Below are positions 1,440 through 32,190 of a stretch of 64,000 bases of DNA, one piece after another. The position numbers and the translations under genes are program-made. The DNA comes from an uncultured Gammaproteobacteria bacterium (GTDB lineage: Bacteria > Pseudomonadota > Gammaproteobacteria > UBA9214): contig CAVVHS010000005.1 in NCBI GenBank assembly GCA_963748215.1, positions 128,001 to 192,000 on the forward strand, read 5' to 3'. Positions within the stretch are counted from its first letter, which is position 1. Every line of letters begins with the position of its first letter. The notes under the pieces are model-generated. The model did not search any database, had not been told where the DNA came from, and saw only the letters and a program-made list of their open reading frames with translations.

Positions 1440-1477
1440 CGATGCCTTGTCTGTGTTATGGCGGCGTTATAAAGGGA

Positions 1478-1589
1478 GGTGACCTGTACCAGCCACACCC
1501 CGGCGCCCGAGTCCACTGCTGCCGCTGCTCCCTTCCGGGCCTGACGGGGTTCACAGCTTATCGTCGCGGGGGGACCGGCACAAGCCACC
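1478..1589 (-). ncRNA. ffs: Signal recognition particle RNA (4.5S)
   Basis: The reverse complement contains TCAGGCCCGGAAGGGAGCAG (SRP domain IV with GGAA loop) inside a long hairpin with complementary ends. It lies directly upstream of dnaX. Confidence 0.93.
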
Positions 1590-1754
1590 ATAAACAGGTG
1601 GCACATTATAAGGTGTACGCGCCGGTATTTTAACAAATAACTGATTAATTCATCTTCGTTTATTCCGGGGCATCCCGGGCAACAGCGCTGACACGCAGAA
1701 TGCCCCCAGAGTGAGCGAGCGCAGCGAGGCATCCAGTCACAGCGTATTCATCCT

Positions 1755-1850
1755 CGTCATTCCGGCGCAGGCCGGAATCCATGGAAACAACCACTGGATT
1801 CCGGGTCTCCGCTACGCGGCGCCCGGAATGACGAATCAATCAGAGGTCCC
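1755..1850. repeat. CGTC-type palindromic REP-like element with one MITE-like end
   Basis: CGTCATTCCGGCGCAGGCCGGAATCCA...TGGATTCCGGG...CCCGGAATGACG, followed by TCAATCAGAGGTCCC, which resembles the MITE ends at 14982, 38807 and 63006. Confidence 0.8.
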
Positions 1851-1917
1851 TGACCGGCTTGATTTACCCCGGAATCGCTGTTATTCAGGTTGGCACAACA
1901 ACAACGGGGGATTGGGC

Positions 1918-2172
1918 ATGAACAACAACCACGCGGCCTACTGGAAGGCCAACCTGCGCCTCGTCACCGGCTGCCTGCTGGTCTGGGCCACGGTGTCCTT
2001 CGGCTGCGGCATCCTGCTGGTGGACTTTTTCAACCAGTTCCACCTCGCCGGCTACCCGCTCGGCTTCTGGTTCGCGCAGCAGGGCTCACTGTACACCTTC
2101 CTGGGGCTGATCTTCTTCTATGCCTGGCGCATGAACCGGCTTGACCATGAGTACGGCGTGGACGAGGACTGA
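1918..2172 (+). CDS. DUF4212-family small membrane protein (symporter partner)
   Basis: MNNNHAAYWKANLRL...GYPLGFWFAQQGS...YAWRMNRLDHEYGVDED, directly upstream of a solute symporter. Confidence 0.9.
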   Translation: MNNNHAAYWKANLRLVTGCLLVWATVSFGCGILLVDFFNQFHLAGYPLGFWFAQQGSLYTFLGLIFFYAWRMNRLDHEYGVDED

Positions 2173-2175
2173 GCC

Positions 2176-3982
2176 GTGAGCCTGCAGACCCTGACCTATA
2201 TTATCGTGGGCCTGAGTTTTGCCCTGTACATCGGCATCGCCATCGCCCAGCGCGCCACCAGCACCGGGGACTTCTACGTCGCCGGCAAGCACGTTCACCC
2301 GGTCGCCAACGGCATGGCCACCGCGGCCGACTGGATGTCGGCGGCCTCGTTCATCTCCATGGCCGGCCTGATCAGCTTCCTCGGCTACGAGGGCGGCATG
2401 TACCTGATGGGCTGGACCGGCGGCTATGTGCTGCTGGCCATGCTGCTCGCGCCCTACCTGCGCAAGTTCGGCAAGTTCACCGTGCCGGAGTTCATCGGCG
2501 ACCGCTACTACTCGCAGACTGGCGCGCGTGGTCGCGGTGATCTGCCTGATCTTCATCTCCTTCACCTACGTCGCCGGGCAGATGCGCGGCGTCGGCATCG
2601 TGTTCTCGCGCTTCCTGGAAGTGCCGGTGGACACCGGCCTGTTCATCGGCATGGGCGTGGTGTTCGTCTACGCCGTGCTCGGCGGCATGAAGGGCATCAC
2701 CTACACCCAGGTCGCGCAGTACTGCGTGCTGATCTTCGCCTATACCGTGCCGGCCGTGTTCATCGCCATCAACGCCACCGGCAACCCCTTCCCGCAGCTG
2801 GCACTGGGCAGCGAGCTGGTGGACGGTTCCGGTTCGCTGCTGGTCAAGCTCGACCGGACCCTGGTCGACCTCGGCTTCGGTTCCTATACCGAGCCGTTCA
2901 ATGACAAGTCGATGATCGACGTGTGCGCGATCACGCTGGCACTGATGGTCGGCACCGCCGGCCTGCCACACGTCATCGTGCGCTTCTTCACCGTGCCGCG
3001 CGTTCGCGACGCGCGCATCTCCGCCGGCTGGGCGCTGCTGTTCATCACCCTGCTCTACACCACCGCCCCGGCGGTCGGCGCGCTGGCGCGCATGAACCTG
3101 GTCGAGACCGTCAACGGCCCGGACGGCAGCGGCACCTTTTATGCCGCCATGCCCGCCTGGTTCAAGACCTGGGAGAGCTCCGGCCTGCTCGCCTGGTACG
3201 ACCACAACCATGATGCCAAGGTGCAGTACGCCGCGGGCAACGCCTTTGCCGGCGACGGCAAGCCGCAGTTCGATGACGAGCTGCGCGGGCCACTGCACGA
3301 ACGCCTCACCACCAACCCGGGTGAGGGCGAGATCAGCGCTGGCGCGCCGTTCGCCAACGAGATCTACGTCGACCGCGACATTATGGTGCTGGCCAACCCG
3401 GAGATCGCCGGGCTGCCGAACTGGATCATCGCCCTGGTCGCCGCCGGCGGCATCGCCGCGGCCCTGTCCACCGCGGCCGGCCTGCTGCTGGTCATCTCCG
3501 CCAGCATCTCCCACGACCTGCTCAAGAGCACGTTCGCGAAGAACATCAGTGAGCGCAACGAACTGATGGCCGGGCGCATCGCCGCCGGCGTGGCGATCTG
3601 CATCGCCGGCTACCTCGGCCTGCACCCACCCGCCTTCGTCGCCCAGGTGGTCGCGTTCGCCTTCGGCCTGGCCGCCGCATCATTATTCCCCGCCATCCTG
3701 ATGGGCATTTTCAACAAGCGCATGAACAAGTGGGGCGCGATCTGCGGCATGCTGGCGGGGCTGACCTTCACCCTCTGCTACATCATTTACTTCAAGGGCG
3801 TGTTCATCGAACCGATGGCCGCCAACATCCCGGAGAACTGGATCCTCGGCATCTCGCCCGAGGGCGCCGGTGTGATCGGCATGGTGATCAACTTCGTCGT
3901 GGCCATGGCGATCTCGCGCAACACCGCCCCGCCGCCGGCGCATATCCAGGAGATGGTGGAGGAGATCCGGGTGCCGCGATGA
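2176..3982 (+). pseudogene. Sodium:solute symporter (ActP-like SSF family), split by a +1 frameshift near 2520
   Basis: The N-part ([18 protein letters not shown]...[18 protein letters not shown]) lies in ORF 2176 and continues as [11 protein letters not shown]...GTAGLPHVIVRFFTV in ORF 2426-3982. There is one extra base in CAG ACT G GCG CGC GTG. This may be a sequencing error. Confidence 0.85.
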
Positions 3983-3990
3983 AATCAAGA

Positions 3991-4123
3991 AATCAATGGG
4001 GTCAGACTCGATTGATCAGACGTTATATTGGCGAATCGATGGAGTCTGACCCTTTTGATTCTGACCCTTTTGATTCTTCATTATTCTCTTATATTAACGA
4101 AAACCGGGATCTGACTCCGATTT
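3991..4123. repeat. GGGGTCAGA-family bipartite site 1 (type A doublet, 15-bp tandem duplication, extra type B right arm)
   Basis: AATCAATGGGGTCAGACTCGATTGATC (3991-4017) pairs with AATCGATGGAGTCTGACCCTTTTGATT (4034-4060). CTGACCCTTTTGATT is repeated at 4061-4075. TTATATTAAC-GAAAACCGGGATCTGACTCCG lies at 4089-4119. Confidence 0.9.
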
Positions 4124-4140
4124 ACCGAGGAGGCGCTCAT

Positions 4141-4827
4141 ATGAAGCTCGCAAATCTGATTCTGTTTGCTTCGATTTCCTGTTGTCTGGCTGCCTGTGTG
4201 GACTTTACCGCAAAACTCGCCGCCATGTCTCCGGAGGAACTGGCGGGCATGTCGGACAAGAAGGTTTGCGCGATGGCGGGGTATACAAAGACTCTCCCAA
4301 ACTTTCGGCAGGAGTTGGAACGACGCGGGCTCAGCTACGGCATGTGCTGTTACAGGGATCTGTTGGACCGCTGCAACGCACAGTTCGTCCCCGTCAAGGG
4401 AGAGGTCCACACCCTGCACGCCACTGATGACGTAGAGCTCGTCATGGAAGGAGAAACCATCGAGCGACCACACATCAGGATCGGCAAACTCGTGGACAAG
4501 TGGTACGAAAATCTCAAGACCGGCGTGAACACGTATTCTTCCGGGGAATATGCCAGCGCGATCTCACAGGAACTGCTGACCGCCAACGGTCGGAAGCTGG
4601 TCCCGCACGCTGTCGTCGCCGAGCGCTTCGAGCAGGATTACCGGGAAAAGGCCATGGAGATCGGCGCGGACGCGGTGCTGGTCACCTTCACACGGATAGG
4701 CGTGCTGAGCGGTGCCGGCGGCCAGCCGATGTCTGTCATTCCCTCGCCGTATGGCCCGACCGTGGTGACAACGTCGGCAACGGGCACATCCTTCGAAATC
4801 GACCTCGTGGCCGTCAAGTATAAATAA
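4141..4827 (+). CDS. Hypothetical lipoprotein
   Basis: GAGGAGG RBS before ATG 4141; signal peptide with lipobox CLAAC. The ORF-track extension back to 3730 is a translation of symporter and repeat DNA. Confidence 0.8.
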   Translation: MKLANLILFASISCCLAACVDFTAKLAAMSPEELAGMSDKKVCAMAGYTKTLPNFRQELERRGLSYGMCCYRDLLDRCNAQFVPVKGEVHTLHATDDVELVMEGETIERPHIRIGKLVDKWYENLKTGVNTYSSGEYASAISQELLTANGRKLVPHAVVAERFEQDYREKAMEIGADAVLVTFTRIGVLSGAGGQPMSVIPSPYGPTVVTTSATGTSFEIDLVAVKYK

Positions 4828-4969
4828 CTGCGTAATACAGGGGCCGGATACAGTTTATCAATGACTTGGAAAGTACATACGACCCCTTTTTGGCAAACAC
4901 CGCCCAATGACGGCCAGCACGGTCCATGGGCCTCCTGGCGCCTGCCAAAGTATGGGCTATACTGTGAGA

Positions 4970-5172
4970 ACTGCTGAATAATCTGTAGCCGATCAGGTTG
5001 ACCATTCAGCAGGCCAGGGCCAGCGCACTGTCAGTCGAGGGTGGCATTGTACTCTGGCAATGGCGAAACCCTCGTTGGGCCTTGCCTGACTGCTAGGTGG
5101 ATGTGCGTTGTCCCCACGACAAGGTAAGACACAGAATAATCGGCTGCGGCGGCCTTCGGGCCGCCGTTCTGT
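4970..5172 (+). ncRNA. Candidate structured non-coding RNA or attenuator-like element
   Basis: No credible ORF. TATACT at 4958-4963; nested stems CTGCTGAAT/ATTCAGCAG, CAGCGCAC/GTGCGTTG, GTCAG/CTGAC, CGAGGG/CCCTCG and CATTG/CAATG; terminal hairpin GCGGCGGCC-TTCG-GGCCGCCGT. Confidence 0.35.
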
Positions 5173-5194
5173 ATCTGGCACATCCTACCTCATG

Positions 5195-5264
5195 AAAAAC
5201 GGGATCAGACTCGATCGATTAGACGAAACATTGACGAATCAACGCAGGCCTGACCCTTTTGATT
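5195..5264. repeat. GGGGTCAGA-family bipartite site (type A doublet)
   Basis: GGGATCAGACTCGATCGATT-agacgaaacattgacg-AATCAACGCAGGCCTGACCCTTTTGATT; homologous to 3991-4060. Confidence 0.85.
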
Positions 5265-5326
5265 CCCACGGCATATAATTGATAGTCAATCGCTCTTGAT
5301 CCTTTCGATTTTGGAGGTTTACCGGA

Positions 5327-6001
5327 ATGACTGGCTCTGACTCCGGGCACCCTTTCGGGTTGCCATTCACTCACGAATTTCCGACCGGTCATGGTTCGCT
5401 GTGCCTCACGGCAGTGCTCTTGCTGGTCGCCATCATCCTTGGGAACGTGCCGGTGCAGGCAGGTGTCTTGCACCGCCTGCCGAATGCAATACCGACGCCG
5501 GAGTTCGTGCTGTCCGGCCTGGATGGCGCAGAGTACCGGCTGAGCGATCTGCGCGGCAGCGTGGTGCTGGTCAACTTCTGGGCCAGCTGGTGCCAGCCTT
5601 GCGTCAAGGAGATCCCGAATCTGCAGCGGCTACACGCAAGTTACGCAGGCGAGCCCTTTGAAATCCTCGCCGTCGATGTCGAGGAGGATGAAAACCGGGT
5701 ACGCCATTTCGTTACGCAGCATGGCATGACCTTCCCGGTACTGCTTGACGAAGATGGCAAGCACTTTGCGGCCTGGGGCAGCCAGGTGCTGCCCACGACC
5801 TTCGTCATCGACGCCGCGGGCATGGTGCGTTACGTGGGGCTTGCCGATCTCGAATGGGATACCGGCGAGGCCCGCAGCGCCATCGATGGCCTGTTGGAGG
5901 AAGCGCGGAAATCATTGAGGTCAGACTCGATTGATCAGGCGTTATATAGGCGCGAGGAATCATTCGAATCAATGGAGTCAGAGTCGATTGATTCGATGTA
6001 A
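5327..6001 (+). CDS. TlpA-like thiol-disulfide oxidoreductase (start uncertain; C-terminal ~30 aa come from repeat DNA)
   Basis: VVLVNFWASWCQPCVKEIP (CxxC) and LPTTFVID cis-Pro motif. Confidence 0.88.
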   Translation: MTGSDSGHPFGLPFTHEFPTGHGSLCLTAVLLLVAIILGNVPVQAGVLHRLPNAIPTPEFVLSGLDGAEYRLSDLRGSVVLVNFWASWCQPCVKEIPNLQRLHASYAGEPFEILAVDVEEDENRVRHFVTQHGMTFPVLLDEDGKHFAAWGSQVLPTTFVIDAAGMVRYVGLADLEWDTGEARSAIDGLLEEARKSLRSDSIDQALYRREESFESMESESIDSM

Positions 6002-6035
6002 TATTGTCCCATCATCGGTGTGCAGCCTTTTCATT
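5910..6035. repeat. GGGGTCAGA-family site (two type A left arms plus a degenerate right arm)
   Basis: AATCATTGAGGTCAGACTCGATTGATC (5910-5936) and AATCAATGGAGTCAGAGTCGATTGATT (5967-5993), with spacers containing TTATAT and TAATATT. Confidence 0.85.
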
Positions 6036-6042
6036 TCCTGAA

Positions 6043-6552
6043 ATGAAGAAACGCTATCTCTATTCCATATTATTTGGCATACCCGGCCTTGCTGCTTCCC
6101 TGCTAATTACCTTTGCTATCTTTGGGGCCCTGGCCGGTTTTATGTGGATTTATGTTTATGGTGACAATCCGTGGCCCCCGTCCACAGGAACGATACTGCC
6201 TGCCTTCTTCATGCTCATTTTCCTGGCACTCTGGATTTCTTCCATCATCGCCGGATTCATAACCGGGAAAAGGTTTGAAGAAAGCCTGGACCTGGACAGG
6301 AACCATATTTGGGTTTCCGTCGACGCAACAGCGCTGCCGATCACGTTAATCATTCTTCATCAGTTTGGCATCGGCAATATAGGGCCAAAATCCGACAGCA
6401 GGCTTTGCAGTGAATTTTGCAGCGGAAAGGGATACGCGGCGAGCGGCATACCGCCAAAGGACTCGGGTGAAAGAACATGTATTTGTCTCGACAGCGCGGG
6501 TCAGGCTGCCATAACTGAATCAATGGGGTCTGAGTTGTTTGATTCGATGTAA
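6043..6552 (+). CDS. Hypothetical membrane protein with a Cys-rich C-terminus
   Basis: Three hydrophobic segments followed by CSEFC...CICLD; the stop codon lies inside the next repeat. Confidence 0.75.
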   Translation: MKKRYLYSILFGIPGLAASLLITFAIFGALAGFMWIYVYGDNPWPPSTGTILPAFFMLIFLALWISSIIAGFITGKRFEESLDLDRNHIWVSVDATALPITLIILHQFGIGNIGPKSDSRLCSEFCSGKGYAASGIPPKDSGERTCICLDSAGQAAITESMGSELFDSM

Positions 6553-6588
6553 TATCGACGCATCAGTGGATGTCCGGCCCTGCTGATT
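6518..6588. repeat. GGGGTCAGA-family bipartite site (degenerate type A)
   Basis: AATCAATGGGGTCTGAGTTGTTTGATT-cgatgtaatatcg-...GTCCGGCCCTGCTGATT. Confidence 0.75.
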
Positions 6589-6660
6589 GCGTCATAGCAG
6601 CGAATGTTGTTATAAACTGCGCTTCAAAAAGAATGCCTGATAGGTGGAGGTAACAGCATT

Positions 6661-7059
6661 ATGAAACGCACATTACTGGCTGTAACTGCGGTATTCATTG
6701 CGTGGTCGCTTCTCGACTTCGTGATTCATGGCCTGTTGCTTCAATCCACTTATGAGGCAACCGCCAGTCTCTGGCGCCCGATGGAAGAAATGAAAATGCC
6801 GCTGATGTACCTTGTCACCCTGGTATACAGCGCCTGCTTCGTCGCCATTTATGGACTGCTGGGGAGTGAAAAGTCATTCGCAACAGGCATCCAGTACGGT
6901 GGCCTCTTCGGCCTGGCCGCCGGCATTTCCATGGGTTTTGGCTCCTACTCCTACATGCCAATCCCGTTGTCGCTGGCATGGGGCTGGTTATTCGGCGTGC
7001 TGGCCGAGTCAATCGTGGCTGGCGCACTGACTGGATTCATCCTGAAACCGGGAAAATAA
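6661..7059 (+). CDS. Small four-helix membrane protein (DUF1761-like)
   Basis: GGAGG RBS; four TM segments; LDFVIHGLLL...YEATASLWRP and YSYMPIP motifs. Confidence 0.8.
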   Translation: MKRTLLAVTAVFIAWSLLDFVIHGLLLQSTYEATASLWRPMEEMKMPLMYLVTLVYSACFVAIYGLLGSEKSFATGIQYGGLFGLAAGISMGFGSYSYMPIPLSLAWGWLFGVLAESIVAGALTGFILKPGK

Positions 7060-7067
7060 GGGAATGA

Positions 7068-7119
7068 CTGTTGTCAGCGCACTTTCCCAGGAACATCAGA
7101 AAAAACTGTGCTGACACCG
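7068..7119. repeat. GGGGTCAGA-family bipartite site (type C variant)
   Basis: TGTTGTCAGCGCACTTTCC-caggaacatcag-AAAAAACTGTGCTGACACC; its spacer resembles that at 9241-9257. Confidence 0.7.
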
Positions 7120-7135
7120 GGTCGCAGGACACACG

Positions 7136-7465
7136 ATGGCCTATGACGCAGACGTAGCACAGCGGTTGCGGGATGCATTTAAACGCAGAACCGATGTGGT
7201 TGAAAAGAAAATGTTCGGTGGTATCGCGTTCATGGTTTCCGGTCACATGTGTTGCGGTGTGCTCGGGAAGGAGCTCATGGCCCGTGTAGGACCCGCTCAA
7301 TATGAGGCGGCGCTGAAGGAGCCTTACGCCCGGGCAATGGATTTCACGGGCAAGCCCCTGAAGGGTTTTATCTATGTCGGCACCCGGGGCTTTGAATCAG
7401 ATGATGACCTGGAATCCTGGATTCGCCGCTGTCAGGCGTTTCTGAACACGCTTCCACCGAAGTAA
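7136..7465 (+). CDS. TfoX/Sxy N-terminal-domain protein
   Basis: EKKMFGGIAFMVSGHMCCGV...LMARVG...MDFTGKPLKGFIYV. Confidence 0.9.
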   Translation: MAYDADVAQRLRDAFKRRTDVVEKKMFGGIAFMVSGHMCCGVLGKELMARVGPAQYEAALKEPYARAMDFTGKPLKGFIYVGTRGFESDDDLESWIRRCQAFLNTLPPK

Positions 7466-7469
7466 TCGA

Positions 7470-7530
7470 AAAACAGAGGTCAAATCCCGGTTTTCGCTAA
7501 TATAATCAGGAATTGTGCTCTGACACCAAT
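7470..7530. repeat. GGGGTCAGA-family hybrid site (type B left arm, type C right arm)
   Basis: AAACAGAGGTCAAATCCCGGTTTTCGC-TAATATAAT-CAGGAATTGTGCTCTGACACCAAT. Confidence 0.8.
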
Positions 7531-7611
7531 CTGCCGCATGCTTCCTCGCTATCTATGACACTGCTGGCAGAAAAGAAGCCGGATACATTAACTTGCGGAA
7601 TAAGAAAACCT

Positions 7612-7944
7612 ATGGCCAGGCACTCAAAAAGACACCGGATATCAGAAGCCACGCAAGGCGAAGCGATGCGAATAGCCCGTGGAATACAACAAGCAGGGCA
7701 GACAAAAGAACAGACGAAACTCATTGCTCAAGGGATTCAAAAAGGTATCGAGCAATACAAGAACCAGCAGAACGCCAAGAGCAGAGAACTGGACAAAAAG
7801 CTCAACAAGGCCAACCAGCAAGCCACACCACCCGTTGTGCGTGAAACTGAAGTACAGGAGAGGGTGACCTATAAACAACACTGGTTACCCTGGGCACTGC
7901 TCTTCCTCACATGGCTGGCTTTGAGTGCCTATTGGTTTACCTAG
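7612..7944 (+). CDS. DUF2956-family protein
   Basis: SEATQGEAMRIARGIQ..GQTKEQTKLIAQGIQKGIEQYK and C-terminal TM LPWALLFLTW. Confidence 0.88.
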   Translation: MARHSKRHRISEATQGEAMRIARGIQQAGQTKEQTKLIAQGIQKGIEQYKNQQNAKSRELDKKLNKANQQATPPVVRETEVQERVTYKQHWLPWALLFLTWLALSAYWFT

Positions 7945-7964
7945 AAAGATGGGTCCGAAAAAAT

Positions 7965-8020
7965 AATTGAGGTCAGACCACAATTTTTCTTAATATTACT
8001 AACGACTATACTCCGACCCC
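7965..8020. repeat. GGGGTCAGA-family bipartite site (type C left arm)
   Basis: AATTGAGGTCAGACCACAATTTTTC-TTAATATTA-CTAACGACTATACTCCGACCCC. Confidence 0.8.
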
Positions 8021-8049
8021 GGATCACTTGGATCACCCTGGAGGATTAA

Positions 8050-8775
8050 ATGGTGACCTTGACGAAGGTTCGTTCAGATCCTGCACTACTCAACACACCA
8101 GAGAGTCAGCCGGCGTACAGACCTGATGATCTGTCAGATCATGCACACCGGCAACTGATCGGGTATATCGGTCTTCTTCTCCCGCTCATACTCATCTTCA
8201 TGGCCGTGGTCAGGGATGGTGTAGCGCAGTGGAGAAGCCTGGAGTCTATCAGCGCATATTATTACACCGGTGCAGTTGCTGCATTTGTGGGAATGCTGGT
8301 CGCTCTTGCGCTTTTCCTGTTCACCTACCGCGGCTACAGCAACAGGTACTACTGGGCAGACCGGGCGGCATCAAGCATCGCCGCAGTTGCTGCGCTTGGT
8401 GTGGCGATCTTTCCCACGGCAGCACCGGATGGTGTGCCTGTTTTATTCTGGTGGTCCCCGCTCACGGGGATCCTGCATTATGTGTTTGCCATCATTCTTT
8501 TCGTGATGTTTGCGGTATTCGCACTCTGGCTGTTCCGGATCAGGCCGGCCGGCGAGGAAGTCACACCCGACAAGCGGTGGCGCAACAGGGTATACCTCCT
8601 TTGCGGAATACTGATAGTTGCAAGCATTGTCTGGGCAGGTGTCGCCGGTAAAAACGGAAGATCCATTTTCTGGCCCGAGTCTGCTGCCCTGATTGCGTTC
8701 GCCGTGTCCTGGCTCGTCAAGGGCTACGCACATACAACGATCGCCAACGCCGCACGCTCTTTGTTCCGGCCGTAA
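8050..8775 (+). CDS. Multi-pass membrane protein (DUF998-like)
   Basis: GAGGA RBS; ESISAYYYT...FVGML...LFTYRGY, ALGVAIFPT and FWPESAALIAFAVSWLVKG; about six TM segments. Confidence 0.8.
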   Translation: MVTLTKVRSDPALLNTPESQPAYRPDDLSDHAHRQLIGYIGLLLPLILIFMAVVRDGVAQWRSLESISAYYYTGAVAAFVGMLVALALFLFTYRGYSNRYYWADRAASSIAAVAALGVAIFPTAAPDGVPVLFWWSPLTGILHYVFAIILFVMFAVFALWLFRIRPAGEEVTPDKRWRNRVYLLCGILIVASIVWAGVAGKNGRSIFWPESAALIAFAVSWLVKGYAHTTIANAARSLFRP

Positions 8776-8792
8776 TAAAGGGGCCAAACCAG

Positions 8793-8893
8793 AAACAGGG
8801 GTCAGATACGAGTTCCCGCTAATATTAGGGAAAACCGGGATCTGAACCCTGTATTCGAATCTGCGTTTCTTTAACTGAATGACCCCACTGATT
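8793..8893. repeat. GGGGTCAGA-family bipartite site (type B doublet) plus an extra right-arm remnant
   Basis: AAACAGGGGTCAGATACGAGTTCCCGC-TAATATTA-GGGAAAACCGGGATCTGAACCCTGTATT; TGACCCCACTGATT at 8880-8893. Confidence 0.85.
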
Positions 8894-9122
8894 GCCGTTG
8901 ATTACTGCCTTGTATGACATTCTTATCCGCCTGACATGTCAATCCTGACATATCCGTCATTAATGACAGTCGTCTTCAAGCGTACCGAGACCGGAAATCA
9001 TAGACATACTGCCCGATTACAGGCTGGCCTGAATTATGCATTCGTTATTGAATGCAACACAGCAAACAATCGTCTGTTTCGATGCCGGCCAGACCCGGCA
9101 AGGGCAAGGAGGATGAGACGGC

Positions 9123-9263
9123 ATGACTCAATGGAATTTTCTGTTAGTCATAATTCTGCTGGCAATGGGCATATTGTTTTTTCGGCCCGGCACAAGCATA
9201 GAAGAGCTATCTGGAAAATCAATGATATCAGAGCACACTTACCAGGAATATCAGGCGAAATAG
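9123..9263 (+). pseudogene. Short membrane-anchored ORF, apparently truncated by the repeat site
   Basis: GGAGG upstream; MTQWNFLLVIILLAMGILFFRPGTSIEELSGK then runs into the repeat at 9217 and stops inside it (46 aa, below the ORF-track cut-off). Confidence 0.45.
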
Positions 9264-9275
9264 TGTTCTGACACC
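9217..9275. repeat. GGGGTCAGA-family bipartite site (type C variant)
   Basis: AATCAATGATATCAGAGCACACTT-accaggaatatcaggcg-AAATAGTGTTCTGACACC. Confidence 0.72.
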
Positions 9276-9400
9276 GCTTCACTTTTATACACCTACAGGG
9301 AACGGAGGGATTGGAAAGAATCCCTCTGCCCCTGTATGCACCGGGTTATACTGCCTCCGAATCAATACCGGTTCATATTTTCATCCCGTGCGGAGGAATA

Positions 9401-10156
9401 ATGAAAACACTCTTCCTTGCTTTCATTCTTGCCCTGGTCGGCCCCAACCCCTCGTACGCTCAGGATACCGGCCTGGATCGCGGCGATGTCGCCCTCATCA
9501 AGAAAAAGCTGGTGACGGTCCAAACGGCCCTGGGTGGCGACCCTGACGGGTATGCTCTGGATTCCGAAGCGTTCAACCTGCCCACCGACTTCAACCCCGC
9601 CCAGGCCGGTAAATTCCGGCCGATAAGATCGAGCCTGTCCCTGCGCTACAGTGACAAGGCCTCGAAGAACAGCCAGGCCGGTGTCGAGAAGGCTGCCGAG
9701 GATTTTCAGGCCAAATATTCCGCGGCGATTGCCAGCGGGGATCAAGCCGCCATGATGAAGATGATGGAAGAAATGCAAATGATGGCGACACAGGCTGCCG
9801 CGGCATCGATGGCGCCACAAAAACAGCCGATGTCGGTTTACGTTGGATTCAATACGGGCGGCGGCACCGGCATCGACCCTGACGCCGTGGTGTTTGAAAG
9901 GGCCGGCGTCATTGCCATCAGAAATAAAAAGCTCAACGAAGCACAAGGTGAGCTGTGGATATATATCGACCCGGTGGCACTGAAGGACAGTAAAAAACTT
10001 TCCAAGGTGGACATGAGCACACCTAACGACGGCGTGACGAAAAAGACCGGCGTCTTCAACATCACCATCCAGGCGAACGGCACACTCTCCGACCTGGAGG
10101 CTTGGGCGTCCAGGATGGACACGGACGCCATGCTCTCGGTGATCGACAGTCTCTAG
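9401..10156 (+). CDS. Hypothetical exported protein
   Basis: GGAGGA RBS before ATG 9401; signal peptide MKTLFLAFILALVGPNPSYA; Met/Ala-rich helical middle. Confidence 0.8.
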   Translation: MKTLFLAFILALVGPNPSYAQDTGLDRGDVALIKKKLVTVQTALGGDPDGYALDSEAFNLPTDFNPAQAGKFRPIRSSLSLRYSDKASKNSQAGVEKAAEDFQAKYSAAIASGDQAAMMKMMEEMQMMATQAAAASMAPQKQPMSVYVGFNTGGGTGIDPDAVVFERAGVIAIRNKKLNEAQGELWIYIDPVALKDSKKLSKVDMSTPNDGVTKKTGVFNITIQANGTLSDLEAWASRMDTDAMLSVIDSL

Positions 10157-10165
10157 CACCTCCTG

Positions 10166-10220
10166 ATACAGGGTCAGATCCCGGTTTTCGCCAATAATCG
10201 GAATCCGGGATTCTGACCCC
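10166..10220. repeat. GGGGTCAGA-family bipartite site (type B doublet)
   Basis: ATACAGGGTCAGATCCCGGTTTTCG-ccaataat-CGGAATCCGGGATTCTGACCCC. Confidence 0.87.
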
Positions 10221-10223
10221 GGC

Positions 10224-10937
10224 TCATTTATAGGTGGCAACCACGTCGCGCCACAGTGACTCGAATTTGTCCACGAACAACTCGAACGATGCGCGCTCGG
10301 TGATCCGACGTTCATCCTCGATCGCGGCGCGGGTTGCCCACACCGCGGCATTCTGATCACGCCAGGAGGTCGCTTCCGCCCTGCCGTAGACAAAGCCGGA
10401 ACGCACATCGACCAGTTGTGCCGAGGTCTTCACGGTAACACGCGCGCTCCTGTTCGGCGGAAAGCCCGGCTTGATGATCGCCAGCGGGTCGTACCTGGCC
10501 TGGTCGACACTGAATCGGGTATCCAGCGTATACAGCAACAGCAGGTCGGCATTAAGCCCCTCGGCCACAGGGCGCAGCGCATCGACCGTGTTCAGCGATG
10601 GCGGGAGCCGGTCCGGGGGCAGGCTGTCCACCCCGGCGACCTGCGGCAACTGCTGCAGGCGCTGGATTTCCCGTTCGGCTTCGATATTGCGGACGGTCAT
10701 TACGCAGAAGCGGCCCGTGCCGTAACAGGCGGGATTGGTCGTGCCATAGCCCGCCGCCTGTACCCGCACCAGCGCAATCCGCGCAGGAAACGCCGCGCCC
10801 GGCTGGCGTTTCTCCGCCGCACCGCCCGCGCCGGAGGCCGTCAGATCGGACAAAATCGCACCGGCACCCGGCGTCTGGTAGGTGGCGCAGCCGGACAGGG
10901 ACAGGAACAGCAACAGCAGGGAAAGTCGATATAGCAT
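10224..10937 (-). CDS. Hypothetical lipoprotein
   Basis: MLYRLSLLLLFLSLSGC lipobox; globular alpha/beta body (FPARIALVRVQ, DLLLLYTLDT, LVDVRSGFVYG). Confidence 0.82.
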   Translation of the reverse strand: MLYRLSLLLLFLSLSGCATYQTPGAGAILSDLTASGAGGAAEKRQPGAAFPARIALVRVQAAGYGTTNPACYGTGRFCVMTVRNIEAEREIQRLQQLPQVAGVDSLPPDRLPPSLNTVDALRPVAEGLNADLLLLYTLDTRFSVDQARYDPLAIIKPGFPPNRSARVTVKTSAQLVDVRSGFVYGRAEATSWRDQNAAVWATRAAIEDERRITERASFELFVDKFESLWRDVVATYK

Positions 10938-11012
10938 GGCAGGATTCACAATGTTGGAAAGGGAGCCAGAGTATAGATCGCAATGATGGAGGAATAAAAA
11001 CGGGAATCAAGG

Positions 11013-11274
11013 AATCAACAGGGTCAGATTCACTGCTGCCCCACATAGTCACCAGGAAAGTTTATTGAATGCGGCTATTCCAGTGATGGGATGGTGTTGA
11101 GCGGTACGTGGACATGAAATTCCGGAACAACAATGATGTCATACCCGCGAAGGCGGGCATCCAGTAAGTCACTGATTAGCCGGGACACAAATAATCCTGG
11201 ATTCCCGCCTTCGCGGGAATGACGGCTATGTGGAACAGCAGTGGGTCAGACTCGATTATTTCGATCCAATATTG
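11013..11274. repeat. Two GGGGTCAGA-family left arms enclosing a CGTC-type REP
   Basis: AATCAACAGGGTCAGATTC (11013-11031); GTCATACCCGCGAAGGCGGGCATCCAG...CTGGATTCCCGCCTTCGCGGGAATGAC (11138-11223); GTGGGTCAGACTCGATT...CAATATTG (11241-11274). Confidence 0.8.
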
Positions 11275-11348
11275 ACACAGCAGTGGCGCCAGCCCTTACT
11301 ATTGAGCGGGCTCACCTGCCCTATTCACAAACGGATCAAGGTACCCCC

Positions 11349-12254
11349 ATGCAACTTGACTCACTCAACGTACGTTTTGCAATCAACAATCACCTGGAGT
11401 TCGTTGCCGGCCAGGGCGGATTGACCAATGCCGTCATCAGCAATGACCTGGCCAGCGCAAGGGTTTCGCTGTATGCGGGACAGGTGTTGTCCTGGCAGCC
11501 GAAGGCAATGCAGCACGATGTGCTGTTTCTGAGTGACCGGGCGTATTACCAGGCCGGCAAGGCCATCAAGGGTGGCGTGCCGGTCTGCTGGCCATGGTTC
11601 GGCCCGGACCCACAGGGAAAGGGCCGGCCAGCGCACGGCTTTGCGCGCATCTCGGTGTGGGAGGTTCTGAACACGGCGGCGCTGGACAATGGCGCCACGC
11701 AACTGGTACTCGGCCTGACGCTGAATGACCAGACGCGTTCCCTGTGGGAGGGGGATATCGAGGCGCAGCTCGCGATCACGGTGGGCGACACGCTCAGGCT
11801 GGCACTGACCACACACAATCGCGGCAATGAGCCCATCGAGCTGAGCCAGGCACTGCACACCTATTTCGCGGTGGGCGATATCGCCAAAACCATGGTGAGC
11901 GGTCTGGAAGACAGGACCTATATCGACAAGGTCGACAACAGCAAGCAAAAAGTCCAGCTGGGTGCGGTGATGGTCAGCGGGGAAGTCGACCGGATCTACA
12001 CCGGTGTGGACCGCGAGTTACAGATTCACGACGCCGCATACAAGCGGGTGATACACATCAAGGCCGGGGGCAGCGCAAGTGCGGTCGTGTGGAATCCGTG
12101 GCAGGCCATCGCCGCCAGCATGGCTGACCTGGGCGATGAGGATTACCGCCACATGCTGTGCGTGGAGACTACCAATGCCGGACCAGACGTGGTAAATCTG
12201 GCAGCTGGCGCAAAGCATACGCTTAGTGCTGAATATGCAGCCACCGACATATAG
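11349..12254 (+). CDS. D-hexose-6-phosphate mutarotase (aldose 1-epimerase family, YeaD-like)
   Basis: KAIKGGVPVCWPWFG, HGFAR, ALHTYF, EVDRIY, VVWNPW and MLCVET motifs. Confidence 0.93.
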   Translation: MQLDSLNVRFAINNHLEFVAGQGGLTNAVISNDLASARVSLYAGQVLSWQPKAMQHDVLFLSDRAYYQAGKAIKGGVPVCWPWFGPDPQGKGRPAHGFARISVWEVLNTAALDNGATQLVLGLTLNDQTRSLWEGDIEAQLAITVGDTLRLALTTHNRGNEPIELSQALHTYFAVGDIAKTMVSGLEDRTYIDKVDNSKQKVQLGAVMVSGEVDRIYTGVDRELQIHDAAYKRVIHIKAGGSASAVVWNPWQAIAASMADLGDEDYRHMLCVETTNAGPDVVNLAAGAKHTLSAEYAATDI

Positions 12255-12342
12255 CGGGGAAGCAAAACGCATCAGGGGTCGGTGATCAACCCTGATCAGG
12301 ATGTCGGGCCACCTGCGATGAAAAGTCATTACTGAATCAGCC

Positions 12343-12627
12343 ATGCAAAAAACAGACAACATGCCAATCTGGGTCTATCTCGCCTTCTCGAGCATCTCGA
12401 CGAGGAAGGGAGCGTTATTGCTGATCCTGGCCTGCGCGGTGTTTACCCTGTACTGCATCCCCTGGCCCCTGTTTTTCGCGCGCCCGGCCTGGCTTGTAAA
12501 CCTGTTTCTGATCGAGGACTGGAGCTGGTTTGCAATGATGGTTCCGATCACCTTGTGGTACTGGATAAGCTTAAGATGGATCGACAAAAACCATGCTTGG
12601 GCCGACACCGGCAAGAATGACAACTAG
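12343..12627 (+). CDS. Small hypothetical membrane protein
   Basis: Two TM segments, Trp-rich (PIWVYLAFSSISTRKGAL...WYWISLRWIDKNHAW). Confidence 0.7.
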   Translation: MQKTDNMPIWVYLAFSSISTRKGALLLILACAVFTLYCIPWPLFFARPAWLVNLFLIEDWSWFAMMVPITLWYWISLRWIDKNHAWADTGKNDN

Positions 12628-12765
12628 CCCGAAGACGGGGGACGGAGGGCATGCACCCCCCCGCCCCCTATCGTTACTTCTATGGAGACTGTCCCCGTGT
12701 TGCGTGCTGCTGTTACCCGTTCTGGCGAGACAGCTTCCATTGCTGCATGGCGAAAATGACGCCGC

Positions 12766-13023
12766 CTAGATCCCGCCGATGAGCTGCGCGTTCAGCTGGT
12801 GCTGCTTGACGAGTTTCAGAATATGCGACGAGTTGGTCTGTGCCGGGTTGTAGCCGACGACCAGCAGGTGCTGACGTTCTTCGTTGAAGTGCGCGCGTTC
12901 GACACCTGCCGATTCTAACAGGGCGTGCTCGACCCGCCGCCTGTTCTGCTCATCCAGCTGTTCGTCTACGTGTACAACGATGTCAATCTTGGTTGTAATG
13001 ATGTTCGGTTGTGCGTTGTTCAT
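12766..13023 (-). CDS. Small HMA/ferredoxin-fold-like protein lacking the CxxC motif
   Basis: AAGGAG RBS; DIVVHVDEQL...GVERAHF...HLLVVGYNP...AQLIG. Confidence 0.72.
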   Translation of the reverse strand: MNNAQPNIITTKIDIVVHVDEQLDEQNRRRVEHALLESAGVERAHFNEERQHLLVVGYNPAQTNSSHILKLVKQHQLNAQLIGGI

Positions 13024-13060
13024 CCGGCTCTCCTTGTTAGGTCAACAACGCCGTGAATAT

Positions 13061-13078
13061 TTGCAAGTGCTATGCCAA
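13061..13078 (-). promoter_or_regulatory. Sigma-54 (-24/-12) promoter for the 12766-13023 gene
   Basis: Reverse complement TTGGCATAGCACTTGCAA matches TGGCAC-N5-TTGCW with exact spacing, about 40 bp upstream of the ATG. Confidence 0.7.
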
Positions 13079-13246
13079 CTTTAAATAGAGCCCGATAACA
13101 ATGGATTACCGCCGCTGGAAACAGCGGCGACTGCGACGGTTGTTACCGGCAGGCGACGCTTGCGACGGGTATATTGTTAACCTCAGGAATATACTATTGT
13201 TAAGCTGTCGCCCGATTACGACGAAATGTGCGCCGGAGAGACCAGT

Positions 13247-13729
13247 ATGACATTCGAAACCGACGTGGCCGCCACCGCGGAGCGCGAGCTGGTATTGACT
13301 CGCATCATCGCCGCGCCGCGGGCCAGGCTGTTCAGGGCATGGACGGAACCCGCTCTGCTGAAGCAGTGGTTTGCGCCGTTGCCCTGGACCACGCCGCATG
13401 CCGAGCTCGACGTCCGCCCCGGGGGCACCAGCCTGGTTGTCATGCGTGACCCCGACGGTAACGAAATACCGAACCGCGGGGTCTACCTGGAGGTTATCGA
13501 GAATGAGCGGATCGTGTTTACCGATGCCTACACGAAGGCCTGGGAACCCTCGGAAAAGCCGTTCATGACGGTGATCCTGACCTTCGGGGACGAGCACGGC
13601 AAAACCCGGTACACGGCCCGGGTCCGCCACTGGACAGTCGCCGATCGCGAGGCGCACGAGCAAATGGGCTTTCACCAGGGTTGGGGACTGTGCGCAGACC
13701 AGCTGGCGGCGCTCGTCGAAAAGCCGTGA
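13247..13729 (+). CDS. SRPBCC/AHSA1-like domain protein
   Basis: RELVLTRIIAAPRARLFRAWTEP..LKQWFAP, DVRPGG and MGFHQGWG motifs. Confidence 0.92.
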   Translation: MTFETDVAATAERELVLTRIIAAPRARLFRAWTEPALLKQWFAPLPWTTPHAELDVRPGGTSLVVMRDPDGNEIPNRGVYLEVIENERIVFTDAYTKAWEPSEKPFMTVILTFGDEHGKTRYTARVRHWTVADREAHEQMGFHQGWGLCADQLAALVEKP

Positions 13730-13756
13730 TGGCCCGGCAGGCTATATACTGACGCC

Positions 13757-14350
13757 ATGACGAAACTGCTTGCCATCAACGGCTCCTATCGCGAAAACGG
13801 CGCCATCGACCAGGCGGTCGCAGCCGCCGTGCAGGCGGCGACGACGGCCGGTGCGACGGTCGAGGTCGTCACGCTGCGCGATTTTCCCATCGAGTTCTGT
13901 CTCAACTGCCGGCACTGCACCCAGCAACCGGGTGACGCGCCCGGCGAATGCGTGCACCAGGACCGCATGCACGAACTGGTGGCCAGCATCGAGGCGGCCG
14001 ACGGCTTCATCCTCGCCTCCCCCACCAACTTCTATGCGGTCACCGCCATCTTCAAGCGCTTCATGGAACGGCTGATTGTCTATGGCTGGTGGCCATGGGG
14101 CGCGCATGCGCCGAAATTCCGCAAATCAAAGCTCGACAAGAAGGCCATCCTGATCGCGTCCAGCGCCGCACCCGGCCCGATGGGACGGCTGTTCTACACG
14201 ACCCTCAAGCAACTGCGGCAGACGGCCAGGACCATCGGCGCGAAACCGGTCGGCTCGGCCTTCATCGGGCTGATGTCGCAGCAGGAACACCCCGTCCTGC
14301 CGGACAAGACCCGCCGTCAGGTGCAAAAACTGGTCGGCAGACTGCTCTAG
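13757..14350 (+). CDS. Flavodoxin-fold NAD(P)H-dependent FMN reductase / iron-sulfur flavoprotein-like
   Basis: LAINGSYR, FCLNCRHC...C and ADGFILASPTNF...KRFMER. Confidence 0.88.
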   Translation: MTKLLAINGSYRENGAIDQAVAAAVQAATTAGATVEVVTLRDFPIEFCLNCRHCTQQPGDAPGECVHQDRMHELVASIEAADGFILASPTNFYAVTAIFKRFMERLIVYGWWPWGAHAPKFRKSKLDKKAILIASSAAPGPMGRLFYTTLKQLRQTARTIGAKPVGSAFIGLMSQQEHPVLPDKTRRQVQKLVGRLL

Positions 14351-14470
14351 CCCGCATTTCTCACCGGGCGGCTGTTGACGGACATAAACAATTGAAGTCA
14401 TGAAAGCGATGCCCATTCAGCAACAAACAGTGTGTCTTCGGGCGGCGCCTATCCCGGTGAGAAATACGGG
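14351..14470. mobile_element. 120-bp MITE with 18-bp terminal inverted repeats and CTAG flanks
   Basis: CCCGCATTTCTCACCGGG ... CCCGGTGAGAAATACGGG (1 mismatch); CTAG at 14347-14350 and 14471-14474. Confidence 0.75.
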
Positions 14471-14646
14471 CTAGTCGCCGTGCGGCACCTGCAGGTAATT
14501 CCGATGACATTGCAAGGTGCACGGCGCGCTGTGCACTTGCTTTGCATCCCGCGCCGCCTGTCGCTGTAGCAACCCGGCCTGGCAGGAGAGGTTTTCACGG
14601 AAATTGTTTGCCTCGATACCTTCCCGCAAGCCGGCGGATAAATGAG

Positions 14647-14996
14647 GGAAGCTCTGATTAATCCGTCATTCCGGGCGAAACCCGGACTTGATTCGGGGGG
14701 AGGCCCGGAATCCAGGTGTTACAATTCAGGCCGTTACTGGATTCCGGCCTCGGCTTTGGCTTCCTGCGTCGCTCTCGGCTCTGGCATGGCCCAGGCCAGT
14801 CTCTCGATCGCTGTGCGATCTCACCTTCTCCTGCTTCGCCCTGCCGAGTCCATCCATGGACTCGTACCTCCTCGGTAACTGCTCCATGCGTCGCCTGGAG
14901 GCGCCTACTTTTGGTACTTTACCTCCACATCCATGTAGTCATGCATCCCTGCAGTCGTGCGCCGGAATGACGAGCATTGATTTAATCAGAGCTTCC
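14647..14996. mobile_element. 350-bp composite MITE (copy 1)
   Basis: Perfect 15-bp TIR GGAAGCTCTGATTAA/TTAATCAGAGCTTCC; internal CGTCATTCCGG...CCGGAATGACG; closely similar copy at 38468-38821. Confidence 0.85.
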
Positions 14997-15034
14997 TTAG
15001 GGTATACTCGTATTGTTTTATCAATCCATTTACC

Positions 15035-15634: not shown

Positions 15635-15967
15635 CCCGGACACGATCCCGGCAGCTTTGCGGACCGCGGCGCTTCGCAGGACGCATGCCCGGCATGCGGA
15701 ACCCGTCAGCGACCTCCGCCCCTCGAGACAAGCCAAGGCTATCCGGCAATCGCGTTATTCAGGGTGAATACGCGCCACGGAACGCAGGGTGAAAGTGAGT
15801 CCTTGAACCGGTCAGGAAGCTGGTTTTTCGCATTGCGCGGGAGCGCGCCTGACCGTGATAATGTCACTCACGCTAGAACCAGGCTGGAAGCCGCCTTGCA
15901 CCCTGGCGTGAGATATGGATTATTGATGCCGCTTGCGGGCTTACCGCATCCCGCGATGCGGCCATGA

Positions 15968-31856: not shown

Positions 31857-32190
31857 GACGCAACACATGCATTAAACCGCTCTGCTGGTGTTTCGTAATT
31901 CAGTGTCTTGCGTGGCCGCTCATCAAACTGACGCGCCACCGCATTTAGCTTTGCCTGCAAGTGTACTGACAAATCGGTGCCTTTGGGTGAATACTGTCTC
32001 AGCAAACCATTGGTGTTCTCATTCGAACCCCGCTGCCAGGGGCTCTGGGGATCGCAGAAGTACACCTTGATATCCGTCGCCACGGTGGTGCGCTCGTGAT
32101 CAGCCACTTCCTTGCCCCGGCCCCAGGTCAGTGACTTATAGAGTTCCCTTGTAACTTGTGGGCCTGCCTGATCAGGGTATTGATCACGGT
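31841..32190 (-). mobile_element. IS30-family transposase remnant (C-terminal part and right end)
   Basis: KSLTW.RGKE.ADH, VYFCDPQSPWQRGSNENTNGLLRQY.PKGTDLS and RPRKTLNYETPAERF; catalytic Asp degraded and 5' part missing. Confidence 0.9.

Follow-up and report, generated by a model that had tools for sequence, protein, structure and literature searches.

REPIN-like repeats of a known Y1 transposase kind separate single genes in a few variable stretches of an uncultured gammaproteobacterial genome

The stretch of DNA analysed here (the window) comprises 64,000 nucleotides of contig CAVVHS010000005.1 (positions 128,001 to 192,000; assembly GCA_963748215.1) from an uncultured gammaproteobacterium, and carries near its start an array of short, unrelated genes with a palindromic repeat at nearly every gene boundary. 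These repeats are REPIN-like non-coding elements (REPINs being doublets of repetitive extragenic palindromes, REPs, that form hairpins), built as doublets of inverted palindromic units that fall into three families. They can be assigned with confidence to a known kind, namely the repeats of Y1 transposases of the RAYT (REP-associated tyrosine transposase) or TIRYT (terminal inverted repeats associated with tyrosine transposases) type. They cluster in a few stretches of the genome, a transposase gene is bracketed by the same arms, gene content and order around them vary between relatives, and one repeat core has received an insertion. Probably, the repeats act as hotspots of breakage, insertion and recombination, which gives the array its cassette-like look without a position-exact reaction of the integron type; the enzyme would then be active on the sites, and the repeats would have a causal role in the variation, two points that we infer.

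A site is a near-palindrome of 48-52 nt, GGTCAGA-N-AATATT-N-TCTGACC, whose flanks beyond the cores are complementary too, as found by direct reading of positions 3900-11400 and with a repeat finder. Each arm is a palindromic unit of about 27 nt with an outer stem, a GGGGTCAGA core and an inner stem (x'-GGGGTCAGA-x), for example AATCAAT-GGGGTCAGACTCG-ATTGATT in family A, and the full site consists of two such units, inverted, around an AATATT-type centre. Core and centre are common to the three stem families, A (TTGATTCG), B (GCACAAT) and C (CCCGGTTTTC). A covariance model (R1) was built from an alignment of 23 site copies, all taken from the genome holding the window (G000, with C2, C3, C5, C6 and C9 among its contigs; other G-numbers denote congeners). 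GGTCAGA and TCTGACC are invariant or near-invariant among these 23 sites, and RNAalifold gives 11 pairs for the alignment, four of them with compensatory changes between families. When folded as single-stranded DNA, five of six doublets reach -16.3 to -21.5 kcal/mol (z -3.8 to -8.1) and one isolated unit -9.7 kcal/mol (z -4.7), while the C/B hybrid doublet at 7466-7537 fails to fold as a hairpin (z -0.42). R1 finds 43 sites in the genome at E<=1e-3, of which 41 are typable: 29 are homotypic (14 B/B, 9 A/A and 6 C/C), one is a clear C/B hybrid, and 11 have one untypable arm, as half or degenerate sites. Half sites, made of one unit and the centre, occur in the window at 4072, 5907/5966, 6515 and 11241.

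In the window, the sites are confined to the array. With at most one mismatch, GGGGTCAGA has 24 matches, 19 of which fall in 3998-11250, against 14.67 +/- 3.81 in shuffled sequences (none of 100 shuffles reaches 24). At E<=0.05, R1 detects ten loci (3988, 4072, 5191, 5907, 6515, 7466, 7959, 8788, 9214 and 10160) and none outside 3988-10230, the other 54 kb of the window having been scanned. On a crude map of open reading frames (ORFs), the block holds 10 spacers (1,529 nt) and the remainder 36 (8,668 nt), and all ten loci are inside. A first-pass annotation, made from the letters of the window, had listed 13 site positions and had seen none in the core operons; R1 recovers 10 of the 13, the remaining three (7068, 11013, 11241) are discernible by eye, and the 36 outer spacers are indeed free of loci. 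Its description of the block as more AT-rich also holds, with a GC content of 0.50-0.575 across 4001-10000 vs 0.615-0.69 upstream. Another low-GC island (30399-38301, GC 0.44-0.54) carries minus-strand genes including two for DUF4124 proteins and one for a PAS histidine kinase, and the R1 scan gives no site there; low GC alone, therefore, does not explain the sites. Early loose pattern scans returned 208 and 2,193 matches, mostly noise, and served only to point at clusters, and a gapless single-unit palindrome scan that scarcely exceeded its reversed-genome control was dropped for R1.

Over the whole genome, 32 of the 43 sites (R1, E<=1e-3) lie in three stretches that add up to 50.1 kb, or 1.4% of the sequence:

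C3:100.5-134.7 kb, 16 sites, including the transposase gene
C5:132.0-138.2 kb, 8 sites, the window array
C6:580.6-590.3 kb, 8 sites

The sites are accordingly grouped in few arrays and not spread over intergenic DNA, as the first-pass annotation had anticipated. In the C3 and C6 arrays, genes are oriented both ways, number 1-3 per site and reach 943 aa in length; the cargo of the C3 array consists of unrelated single genes, for ABC-F ATPase, GATase, GST, D-Ala-D-Ala carboxypeptidase, YaeQ, MsrA-thioredoxin and asparaginase. A congener assembled in 10 contigs (G002) shows the same clustering, with 22 of its ~36 sites in three clusters; the transposase gene lies within the largest, and one of the three is homologous to the window array. 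All 18 congeners that were sampled have R1 matches, as do 2 of 12 genomes belonging to other families of this class.

The transposase gene is encoded in trans to the window. Five places in G000 match PF01797, the best (60.2 bits) at C3:109441-109764, within the largest site cluster. This locus is a 240-aa ORF with an HVH motif (58.6 bits against PF01797 in a protein scan), and it has arms of the window's A type at both ends: a short A doublet ~60 nt upstream and an A-type right arm overlapping the stop codon. A Y1/HUH transposase gene flanked by the arms of the array sites, a possibility raised in the first-pass annotation, is thus present. Its catalytic tyrosine presumably lies in a YRYIELNP stretch, by analogy with RAYT motifs. 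Among NCBIfam models, the protein scores 69.1 bits with the REP-associated tyrosine transposase (NF047646) vs 24.5 bits with the IS200 transposase (NF033573). Of 37 genomes of the genus, G000 among them, 27 have homologues at E<=1e-20, and 13 of 23 genus homologue loci have an R1 match within ~110 nt of both gene ends (6) or of one end (7). Farther afield, 80 homologous loci were taken from other Gamma- and Betaproteobacteria and from an Electrothrix record, and at ~22 of them an R1 match abuts the gene. The four further Y1 matches of G000 are at C9:316002-316682, C9:333335-334015, C9:71645-72070 and C2:111905-112123; two of them score identically and are 49% identical to the bracketed transposase, and the three other Y1 genes tested have no R1 match nearby. 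The loose link across the genus between a full-length transposase and site number, obtained from related and in many cases incomplete genomes, was not used.

This arrangement is known. RAYT-like genes flanked by inverted repeats that share the consensus GGGGWSAS have been described as TIRtrons, or TIRYTs (PMC3733652), whose repeats form moderately abundant families and occur in dimers or clusters (PMC3733652, PMC6006769). The GGGGTCAG present in the site arms agrees with the published GGGGWSAS. Repeats of the form GGGG(A/T)(C/G)AG beside RAYT-like genes had been mentioned in the first-pass annotation; as the published arrangement matches, this statement was correct, and the element is of a known kind. 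As E. coli TnpAREP cleaves inverted REPs and their linkers in vitro (PMC3333891), an enzyme of the TnpAREP family could be able to cut at repeats such as these.

Several observations weigh against this picture. The GTAG tag of classical REPs is missing from the alignment of 23 sites. The NF047646 score of the transposase (69.1) is below the curated cut-off of 80, and phmmer against the PDB retrieves no solved structure at E<=0.01. A C-terminal helix-turn-helix (HTH; Bac_DnaA_C, HTH_23 or HTH_28) is reported for the TIRYT enzymes, i.e., subclass 2.1 of TnpAREP (PMC6006769), but Pfam finds none in the C3 protein at E<=0.1, the sole match being Y1_Tnp at residues 15-122; a divergent HTH is possible. 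No cognate transposase gene was found in G000 for families B and C, the sole bracketed gene having A-type arms. The distribution is unusual as well. In the Pseudomonas fluorescens group, REPs follow the core (older) genome and strain-specific regions are 'REP deserts' (PMC3390384), and the low copy number (43) and island-bound location found here are the reverse of that pattern. Finally, orthologous sites of G000 and its relative G038 persist and decay, with ~15% of positions different (counted on printed sequences); cutting of the sites by the transposase and recent movement of doublets are putative.

As the genome also contains an integron integrase gene, the sites could be attC sites and the array a CALIN (cluster of attC sites lacking integron-integrases). 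The layout resembles one, with nine of ten short genes co-oriented and a structured, imperfect palindrome after almost every gene. Nevertheless, the sites do not have RYYYAAC/GTTRRRY ends on direct reading, and the gene that they bracket encodes a Y1 transposase and not a tyrosine recombinase. The integrase gene (C2:97400-98338; TIGR02249, 443.7 bits) has one internal TGA and may be inactive. Upstream of it, short minus-strand ORFs are divided by canonical attC-like repeats (...TAACG... / ...TTGTTATGC), which are unrelated to the GGGGTCAGA sites. R1 has no match in C2:80000-99900, and its only match on C2 is weak and ~16 kb from the integrase gene, at 114028. The genome's own attC-like repeats thus act as an internal control, which supports the initial statement that the sites are not attC; a CALIN is almost certainly the wrong description. 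No 28-bp XerC/XerD boxes were noticed on reading 3900-11400, a reading in which no dif model was applied.

The array is given below part by part in window coordinates, with repeats listed without strand:

3985..4076, site 1, A doublet plus a 15-nt tandem right-arm duplicate at 4046-4076 (R1 70.1 bits; repeats D8/I12)
4072..4118, half site, centre TTATATTAAC plus C-type right arm (R1 16.2 bits; repeat D12)
4141..4827, + strand, module gene 1, 228-aa lipoprotein-like ORF, no Pfam match (in 2 of 36 congeners)
5191..5267, A doublet with degenerate right arm (R1 48.6 bits)
5327..6001, + strand, module gene 2, TlpA-like thiol-disulfide oxidoreductase (AhpC-TSA 94.3 bits, Redoxin 88.4 bits)
5907..6014, two direct A units with an AATATT-type centre after each (R1 21.2 bits; repeat D1)
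6043..6552, + strand, module gene 3, 169-aa membrane protein, no Pfam match (sequence, Pfam scan)
6515..6591, half site, A unit plus centre (R1 27.3 bits)
6661..7059, + strand, module gene 4, 132-aa ORF, no Pfam match (Pfam scan)
7068..7125, degenerate B-like doublet (by eye only; below R1 detection at E<=0.05)
7136..7465, + strand, module gene 5, TfoX_N domain protein (PF04993, 60.9 bits)
7466..7537, hybrid doublet, C-type left and B-type right arm (R1 50.5 bits; same place kept in G038)
7612..7944, + strand, module gene 6, DUF2956 protein (PF11169, 118.7 bits)
7959..8030, doublet, B-type left and atypical right arm (R1 56.1 bits)
8050..8775, + strand, module gene 7, DUF7103 membrane protein (PF23396, 28.4 bits)
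8788..8859, C doublet (R1 62.5 bits, z -5.5)
9123..9263, + strand, 46-aa ORF, putative coding, 3' end overlapping the next site (ORF list, sequence)
9214..9285, degenerate B-type doublet (R1 28.2 bits)
9401..10156, + strand, module gene 8, 251-aa exported protein, no Pfam match (in 3 of 36 congeners)
10160..10230, C doublet, last site ahead of the conserved flank (R1 49.8 bits, z -3.8)
10224..10949, - strand, conserved flank gene, 241 aa, no Pfam match, convergent with the array (sequence, Pfam scan)
11012..11275, one A unit plus centre, split by a ~215-nt insertion (repeat I4, comparison with relatives)

The first-pass annotation had placed nine module genes on the plus strand and one on the minus strand, a count that is correct, and part of its gene labels stand as well: the TlpA-like redoxin (AhpC-TSA, 94 bits), TfoX_N (61 bits) and DUF2956 (119 bits). 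The 'DUF1761-like' gene has no Pfam match at E<=0.01 and the 'DUF998-like' one matches DUF7103 instead; neither of the two 'lipoproteins', nor the membrane protein, nor the exported protein has a Pfam match.

Site 1 begins 3 nt past the stop codon of the SSF symporter gene and folds as single-stranded DNA at -18.2 kcal/mol (z -6.0). The 15-nt right-arm piece at 4046-4076 is exactly tandem-duplicated straight after it, and one contig of metagenome run X5 omits 7 nt at 4061. In contigs of the same run, a B-type left arm stands before the half site at 4072..4118, with a loose end at 4079. The counterpart of 5907..6014 in G038 is an intact A/A doublet plus an additional DPBB (RlpA-like) gene. The membrane-protein gene (6043..6552) lies between 49-nt direct repeats (5966-6014 / 6517-6565) that are 86% identical. 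The TlpA-like and membrane-protein ORFs continue through repeat units (5909-6001, two units, and 6517-6552), so that their last codons are repeat-encoded; the TlpA homologue of G002 ends sooner. Two other non-coding features were seen nearby. After module gene 1, a stretch of ~220 nt (4952-5170) has a GC-rich hairpin at its end. It shares 79% identity with a sequence elsewhere within the G002 array, has no Rfam match and could be a small RNA or a leader. At 4841-4890, and also in loci L073, L075 and L076, there is a second hairpin repeat family (GGGGCCGGATACA...TGTATCCGGCCCC, then Ts), with 30 near-matches in the genome that are more scattered than the R1 sites.

Given their location at gene boundaries, with an AATATT centre that is -10-like and a T-run after some right arms, the sites could be shared operators, promoters or terminators of an envelope-gene regulon, many modules encoding envelope proteins. 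Nevertheless, promoter-like matches (6 vs 5.0 +/- 2.1 expected) and terminator-like matches (5 vs 7.5 +/- 2.9) are at chance level, and Rfam over 1-16000 gives only the small RNA of the bacterial signal recognition particle (1484-1580, minus strand, 69.5 bits). The same repeats bracket transposase genes in many taxa, and orthologous sites decay, one of them being a non-folding hybrid. Regulation as the function of the sites is, thus, very improbable, although a secondary effect on transcripts may exist.

The array differs between relatives in gene content and gene order. The informative genomes G037, G038 and G039 were obtained by genus-wide searches. G038, ~92% identical to the window in the shared parts, is without 7538-8029 (the DUF2956 gene and one site), and has its additional DPBB/RlpA-like gene after the intact A/A doublet, downstream of TlpA. 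In G037, 6538-8791 is replaced by one gene on the opposite strand, and the order read from two overlapping contigs is RlpA-like, DUF7103, membrane protein, where G000 and G038 have the membrane protein ahead of DUF7103. G039 carries the 'exported' gene with a B/B doublet at a matching upstream distance, among different neighbour genes. In G002, ~28 kb of other DNA follow the SSF symporter gene, the window block 5909-10220 is absent, and the TlpA-like gene and the convergent flank gene are separated by 165 nt that contain no site. In G008, the DUF7103 gene is found after, and next to, an RND (resistance-nodulation-division) efflux operon, with no site upstream of the gene. Homology of the window with both G002 and G008 starts again at 10231. 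The arm beside DUF7103 differs among G000, G037 and G038 in family and in distance from the ribosome-binding site. When 12 window proteins were searched by tblastn against G000 and the loci of 16 relatives, no second copy of an array module was found, but only TlpA and DUF2956 paralogues.

The other two arrays are variable too. Two ~2-kb blocks of the C6 array, with sites at both ends, are absent from G037, and the empty G037 junctions, between convergent genes, have no site. In G002 and G008, genes of the C3 array stand in another order, in the opposite orientation or on other contigs, and the MsrA module of this array sits in G002 at the locus homologous to the window array. Comparison of filled with empty sites gives no target duplication for the doublets themselves. 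Two other short repeats (~110-160 nt) in the C6 region, at L014:7376-7661 and L014:15066-15256, have many copies in G037, G038 and G018, and the first coincides with a ~330-nt stretch missing from G037.

The breakpoints between the window and its relatives lie at or near the sites, in keeping with the early expectation that the two would coincide. Of 18 unique breakpoints in 3975-11348, 13 are within 10 nt of a site vs 41% of non-coding positions (binomial P 0.008), and with R1-defined sites only, the values are 10 of 18 vs 31% (P 0.03). The statistic is modest: the breakpoints are not independent because several are common to related genomes, and, as ends of blastn alignments, they may halt at fast-evolving repeats for that reason alone. 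Four metagenome runs were examined as Logan contigs, from which starts, ends and circles are not resolvable. Contigs of X1 and X4, two studies, join 8770, where DUF7103 ends, to 6020, shortly ahead of the membrane-protein gene. This adjacency is G037-like, and the joint has a depth of 2.1 of ~8 in X1 and 10.2 in X4. The points at which contigs depart from the window (4060, 4079, 8798 and 11245-11249) are all site edges, centres or cores. Joints at 5912->3991 and 10188->8828 were not counted, each being one site resembling another (cf. G038), those at 3194->3371, 9491->11622 and 11131->11218 were ignored for their short sides (22-29 nt) and single low-depth contigs, and the low X4 depth over 6170-6803 was not used as evidence.

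Repeat cores have themselves been targets of insertion. At 11012-11275, one A unit is interrupted by a ~215-nt element with inverted ends, and GGGTCAGA (7-8 nt) stands at both junctions; the 'sites' of the first-pass annotation at 11013 and 11241 are, thus, two halves of one split unit. The orthologous unit is uninterrupted in G037 and G038. In G008, its core holds a different insertion, which has GGGTCAG at either end. Between G037 and G038, the 13-nt core of this unit is exactly reverse-complemented (L074:5840-5875 vs L073 reverse ~3490-3530); judged from the sequences, this may be a loop flip of the kind expected from a hairpin forming in vivo. The insert itself (11033-11240) is similar to a MITE (miniature inverted-repeat transposable element), with ends CACTGCTG..CCACATAG and a 7-8-nt duplication, and it contains a 27-nt inverted repeat (11138-11164 / 11197-11223, 93%). 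G037 also has an insert with ends of this kind, located in a GGGGCCGGAT hairpin. In run X7, the contig depth summed over 10925-11241 is as high as 636; the repeat of the insert is, therefore, widespread.

Variation of this type can be read in more than one way. The first-pass annotation had proposed gene capture and shuffling analogous to that of integrons, with an enzyme acting in trans. In such a system, the Y1 enzyme, or another one acting in trans, would excise circles of a gene plus its site and re-insert them at other sites, so that one specific reaction would build and shuffle the arrays. The clustering of the sites, the Y1 gene in trans and the variation of modules between relatives speak for it. 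Nearly every array spacer has a site (10 by R1 and three by eye), with 0 of 36 outside spacers, and the blocks that relatives lack have a site at either end, whereas the empty junctions are site-free, a pattern that seamless excision or insertion of the IS200/IS605 type would leave (PMC3333891). The membrane-protein gene between its 49-nt direct repeats of unit plus centre, the C/B hybrid, the 11 doublets with one untypable arm, and the C3-array module found in the G002 counterpart of the window array also fit such a system, and the joint 8770->6020, together with the gene order of G037, is consistent with circular permutation of a five-gene block.

The details are less favourable to it. The arm beside DUF7103, as noted, varies in family and distance in three genomes and is absent in G008, and the ends of the C6 blocks are 20-60 nt away from the nearest site, the right-hand ones being ~26-60 nt from the last site. 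Had centres crossed over repeatedly between families, 29 homotypic doublets out of 41 would not be expected. The C3 and C6 arrays, with mixed orientation and several genes per site in places, depart from a one-gene cassette, no window module is duplicated in G000, and the depth of the 8770->6020 joint fits a co-occurring strain better than a transient circle. The persistence and decay of orthologous sites between G000 and G038 are also unfavourable. A crossover at the AATATT centre, with the arm travelling with the neighbouring gene, was rejected as a general rule, as one typed doublet in 41 is a clear hybrid. It is further opposed by the 'exported' gene of G039, which keeps an entire B/B doublet, and by the DUF7103 arm, which varies between genomes. 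The early proposal, thus, retains its clustering, its enzyme in trans and its moving modules, but the repeats belong to the known REP/REPIN-RAYT kind, and a position-exact reaction is not what ragged junctions and 1 hybrid in 41 indicate. A precise cassette system is, on balance, unlikely. Its boldest form is equally doubtful: a RAYT/TIRYT-type Y1 transposase would drive chromosomal gene shuffling, with hairpin-bounded modules excised and re-inserted within and between several arrays per genome, as a single-strand, HUH-based integron analogue using a genus-wide pool of small envelope and stress genes.

Alternatively, the repeats could be bystanders, i.e., the variable loci would be exchanged by homologous recombination in conserved flanks, and repeats would accumulate where they are tolerated or beside existing copies. 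The interior differs between genomes, but the flanks that enclose it are conserved and collinear, and the variable blocks are located between convergent genes, at positions where an insertion costs little. Three different doublets upstream of DUF7103 in three genomes resemble independent turnover of repeats and not gene movement, and the minimal mobile elements of Neisseria, with alternative genes at syntenic sites (PMC1797815), offer a parallel. Nevertheless, breakpoints are enriched near sites even among non-coding positions, order changes within and between arrays go beyond what flank-mediated replacement alone would give, the low-GC island of the same window is site-free, and repeat cores are demonstrably insertion targets. 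This explanation is somewhat less implausible than the cassette system, but it is still improbable.

The junctions of the modules are ragged and hybrids are rare, and the view of the repeats as hotspots of breakage, insertion and recombination is, therefore, favoured over a precise integron-like cassette system. Its steps can be outlined as follows. As judged from the enzyme family, the transposase encoded in trans would bind hairpins in single-stranded DNA, cut and rejoin them, and so spread doublets. In this lineage, the repeats are mostly restricted to a few 'plasticity' stretches between conserved, often convergent genes, within which they occupy nearly every spacer between small gene modules. 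Gain, loss and re-ordering of genes in these stretches end at or beside repeats. The repeats could act by forming hairpins or cruciforms, by sharing short homology, by being cut by the transposase, or by being targeted by other mobile DNA.

Comparison with known systems places the repeats closest to the TIRtron/TIRYT group (Di Nocera et al. 2013, PMC3733652; TnpAREP subclass 2.1, Quentin et al. 2018, PMC6006769). Both have a bracketed RAYT-like Y1 gene, GGGGWSAS, and moderately abundant repeats in dimers or clusters. Unlike the published group, the present system has no C-terminal HTH by Pfam, three arm families with one bracketed gene, and repeats placed gene by gene in variable arrays, which the available descriptions do not mention. 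REPIN-RAYT of Pseudomonas and REP/BIME-TnpAREP of E. coli (BIME, bacterial interspersed mosaic element; PMC3116915, PMC3337134, PMC3333891) are alike in their inverted palindromic doublets forming a long hairpin, a single bracketed Y1 gene in trans, and singlets and degenerate copies beside doublets; here, in contrast, GTAG is missing and ~43 copies, not hundreds, are concentrated in variable stretches (cf. PMC3390384). Integron arrays and CALINs also have short, unrelated, mostly co-oriented genes, a palindrome at each boundary, varying content and order, and an enzyme encoded elsewhere, but differ by attC R/L boxes, by IntI in place of a Y1/HUH transposase, and by junctions that are not ragged. 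With IS200/IS605 elements (IS608), the likeness is a Y1/HUH enzyme with subterminal hairpins and seamless, duplication-free excision and insertion (PMC3333891), whereas here the transposase gene is single-copy, gene-free doublets are abundant, and mobilisation of cargo is hypothetical.

The nearest functional precedent is that of the neisserial dRS3 mosaic arrays and minimal mobile elements (PMC1797815). There, inverted-repeat arrays flank envelope genes and are proposed to promote exchange of the adjacent genes, alternative genes occupy syntenic positions, and repeats are targeted by other mobile DNA. The repeat family is a different one, no Y1 transposase is tied to dRS3 in the accessible parts of that source, and the repeats described here separate single genes, not forming long non-coding arrays.

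The pair of repeat and enzyme is, thus, already described, and it is the arrangement, gene by gene in a few changing stretches, that is unusual. The accessible parts of the literature searched contain no description of RAYT/TIRYT repeats arrayed gene by gene with shuffling of modules, and the tables of PMC3733652 and PMC6006769 may list the exact repeat family. The role that RAYT-type domesticated transposases and their repeats play for the host is, as far as the accessible literature goes, an open question, and the stretches analysed here tie a RAYT-like repeat system to local genome plasticity in a concrete way that can be tested. Their filled and empty sites, hybrids and half sites also form a natural set from which cleavage and mobilisation assays could be designed. 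If the repeats only mark hotspots, their value would be more modest, that of flagging accessory-gene arrays in these uncultured Gammaproteobacteria. Cassette-like layouts can, in any case, arise without an integron.

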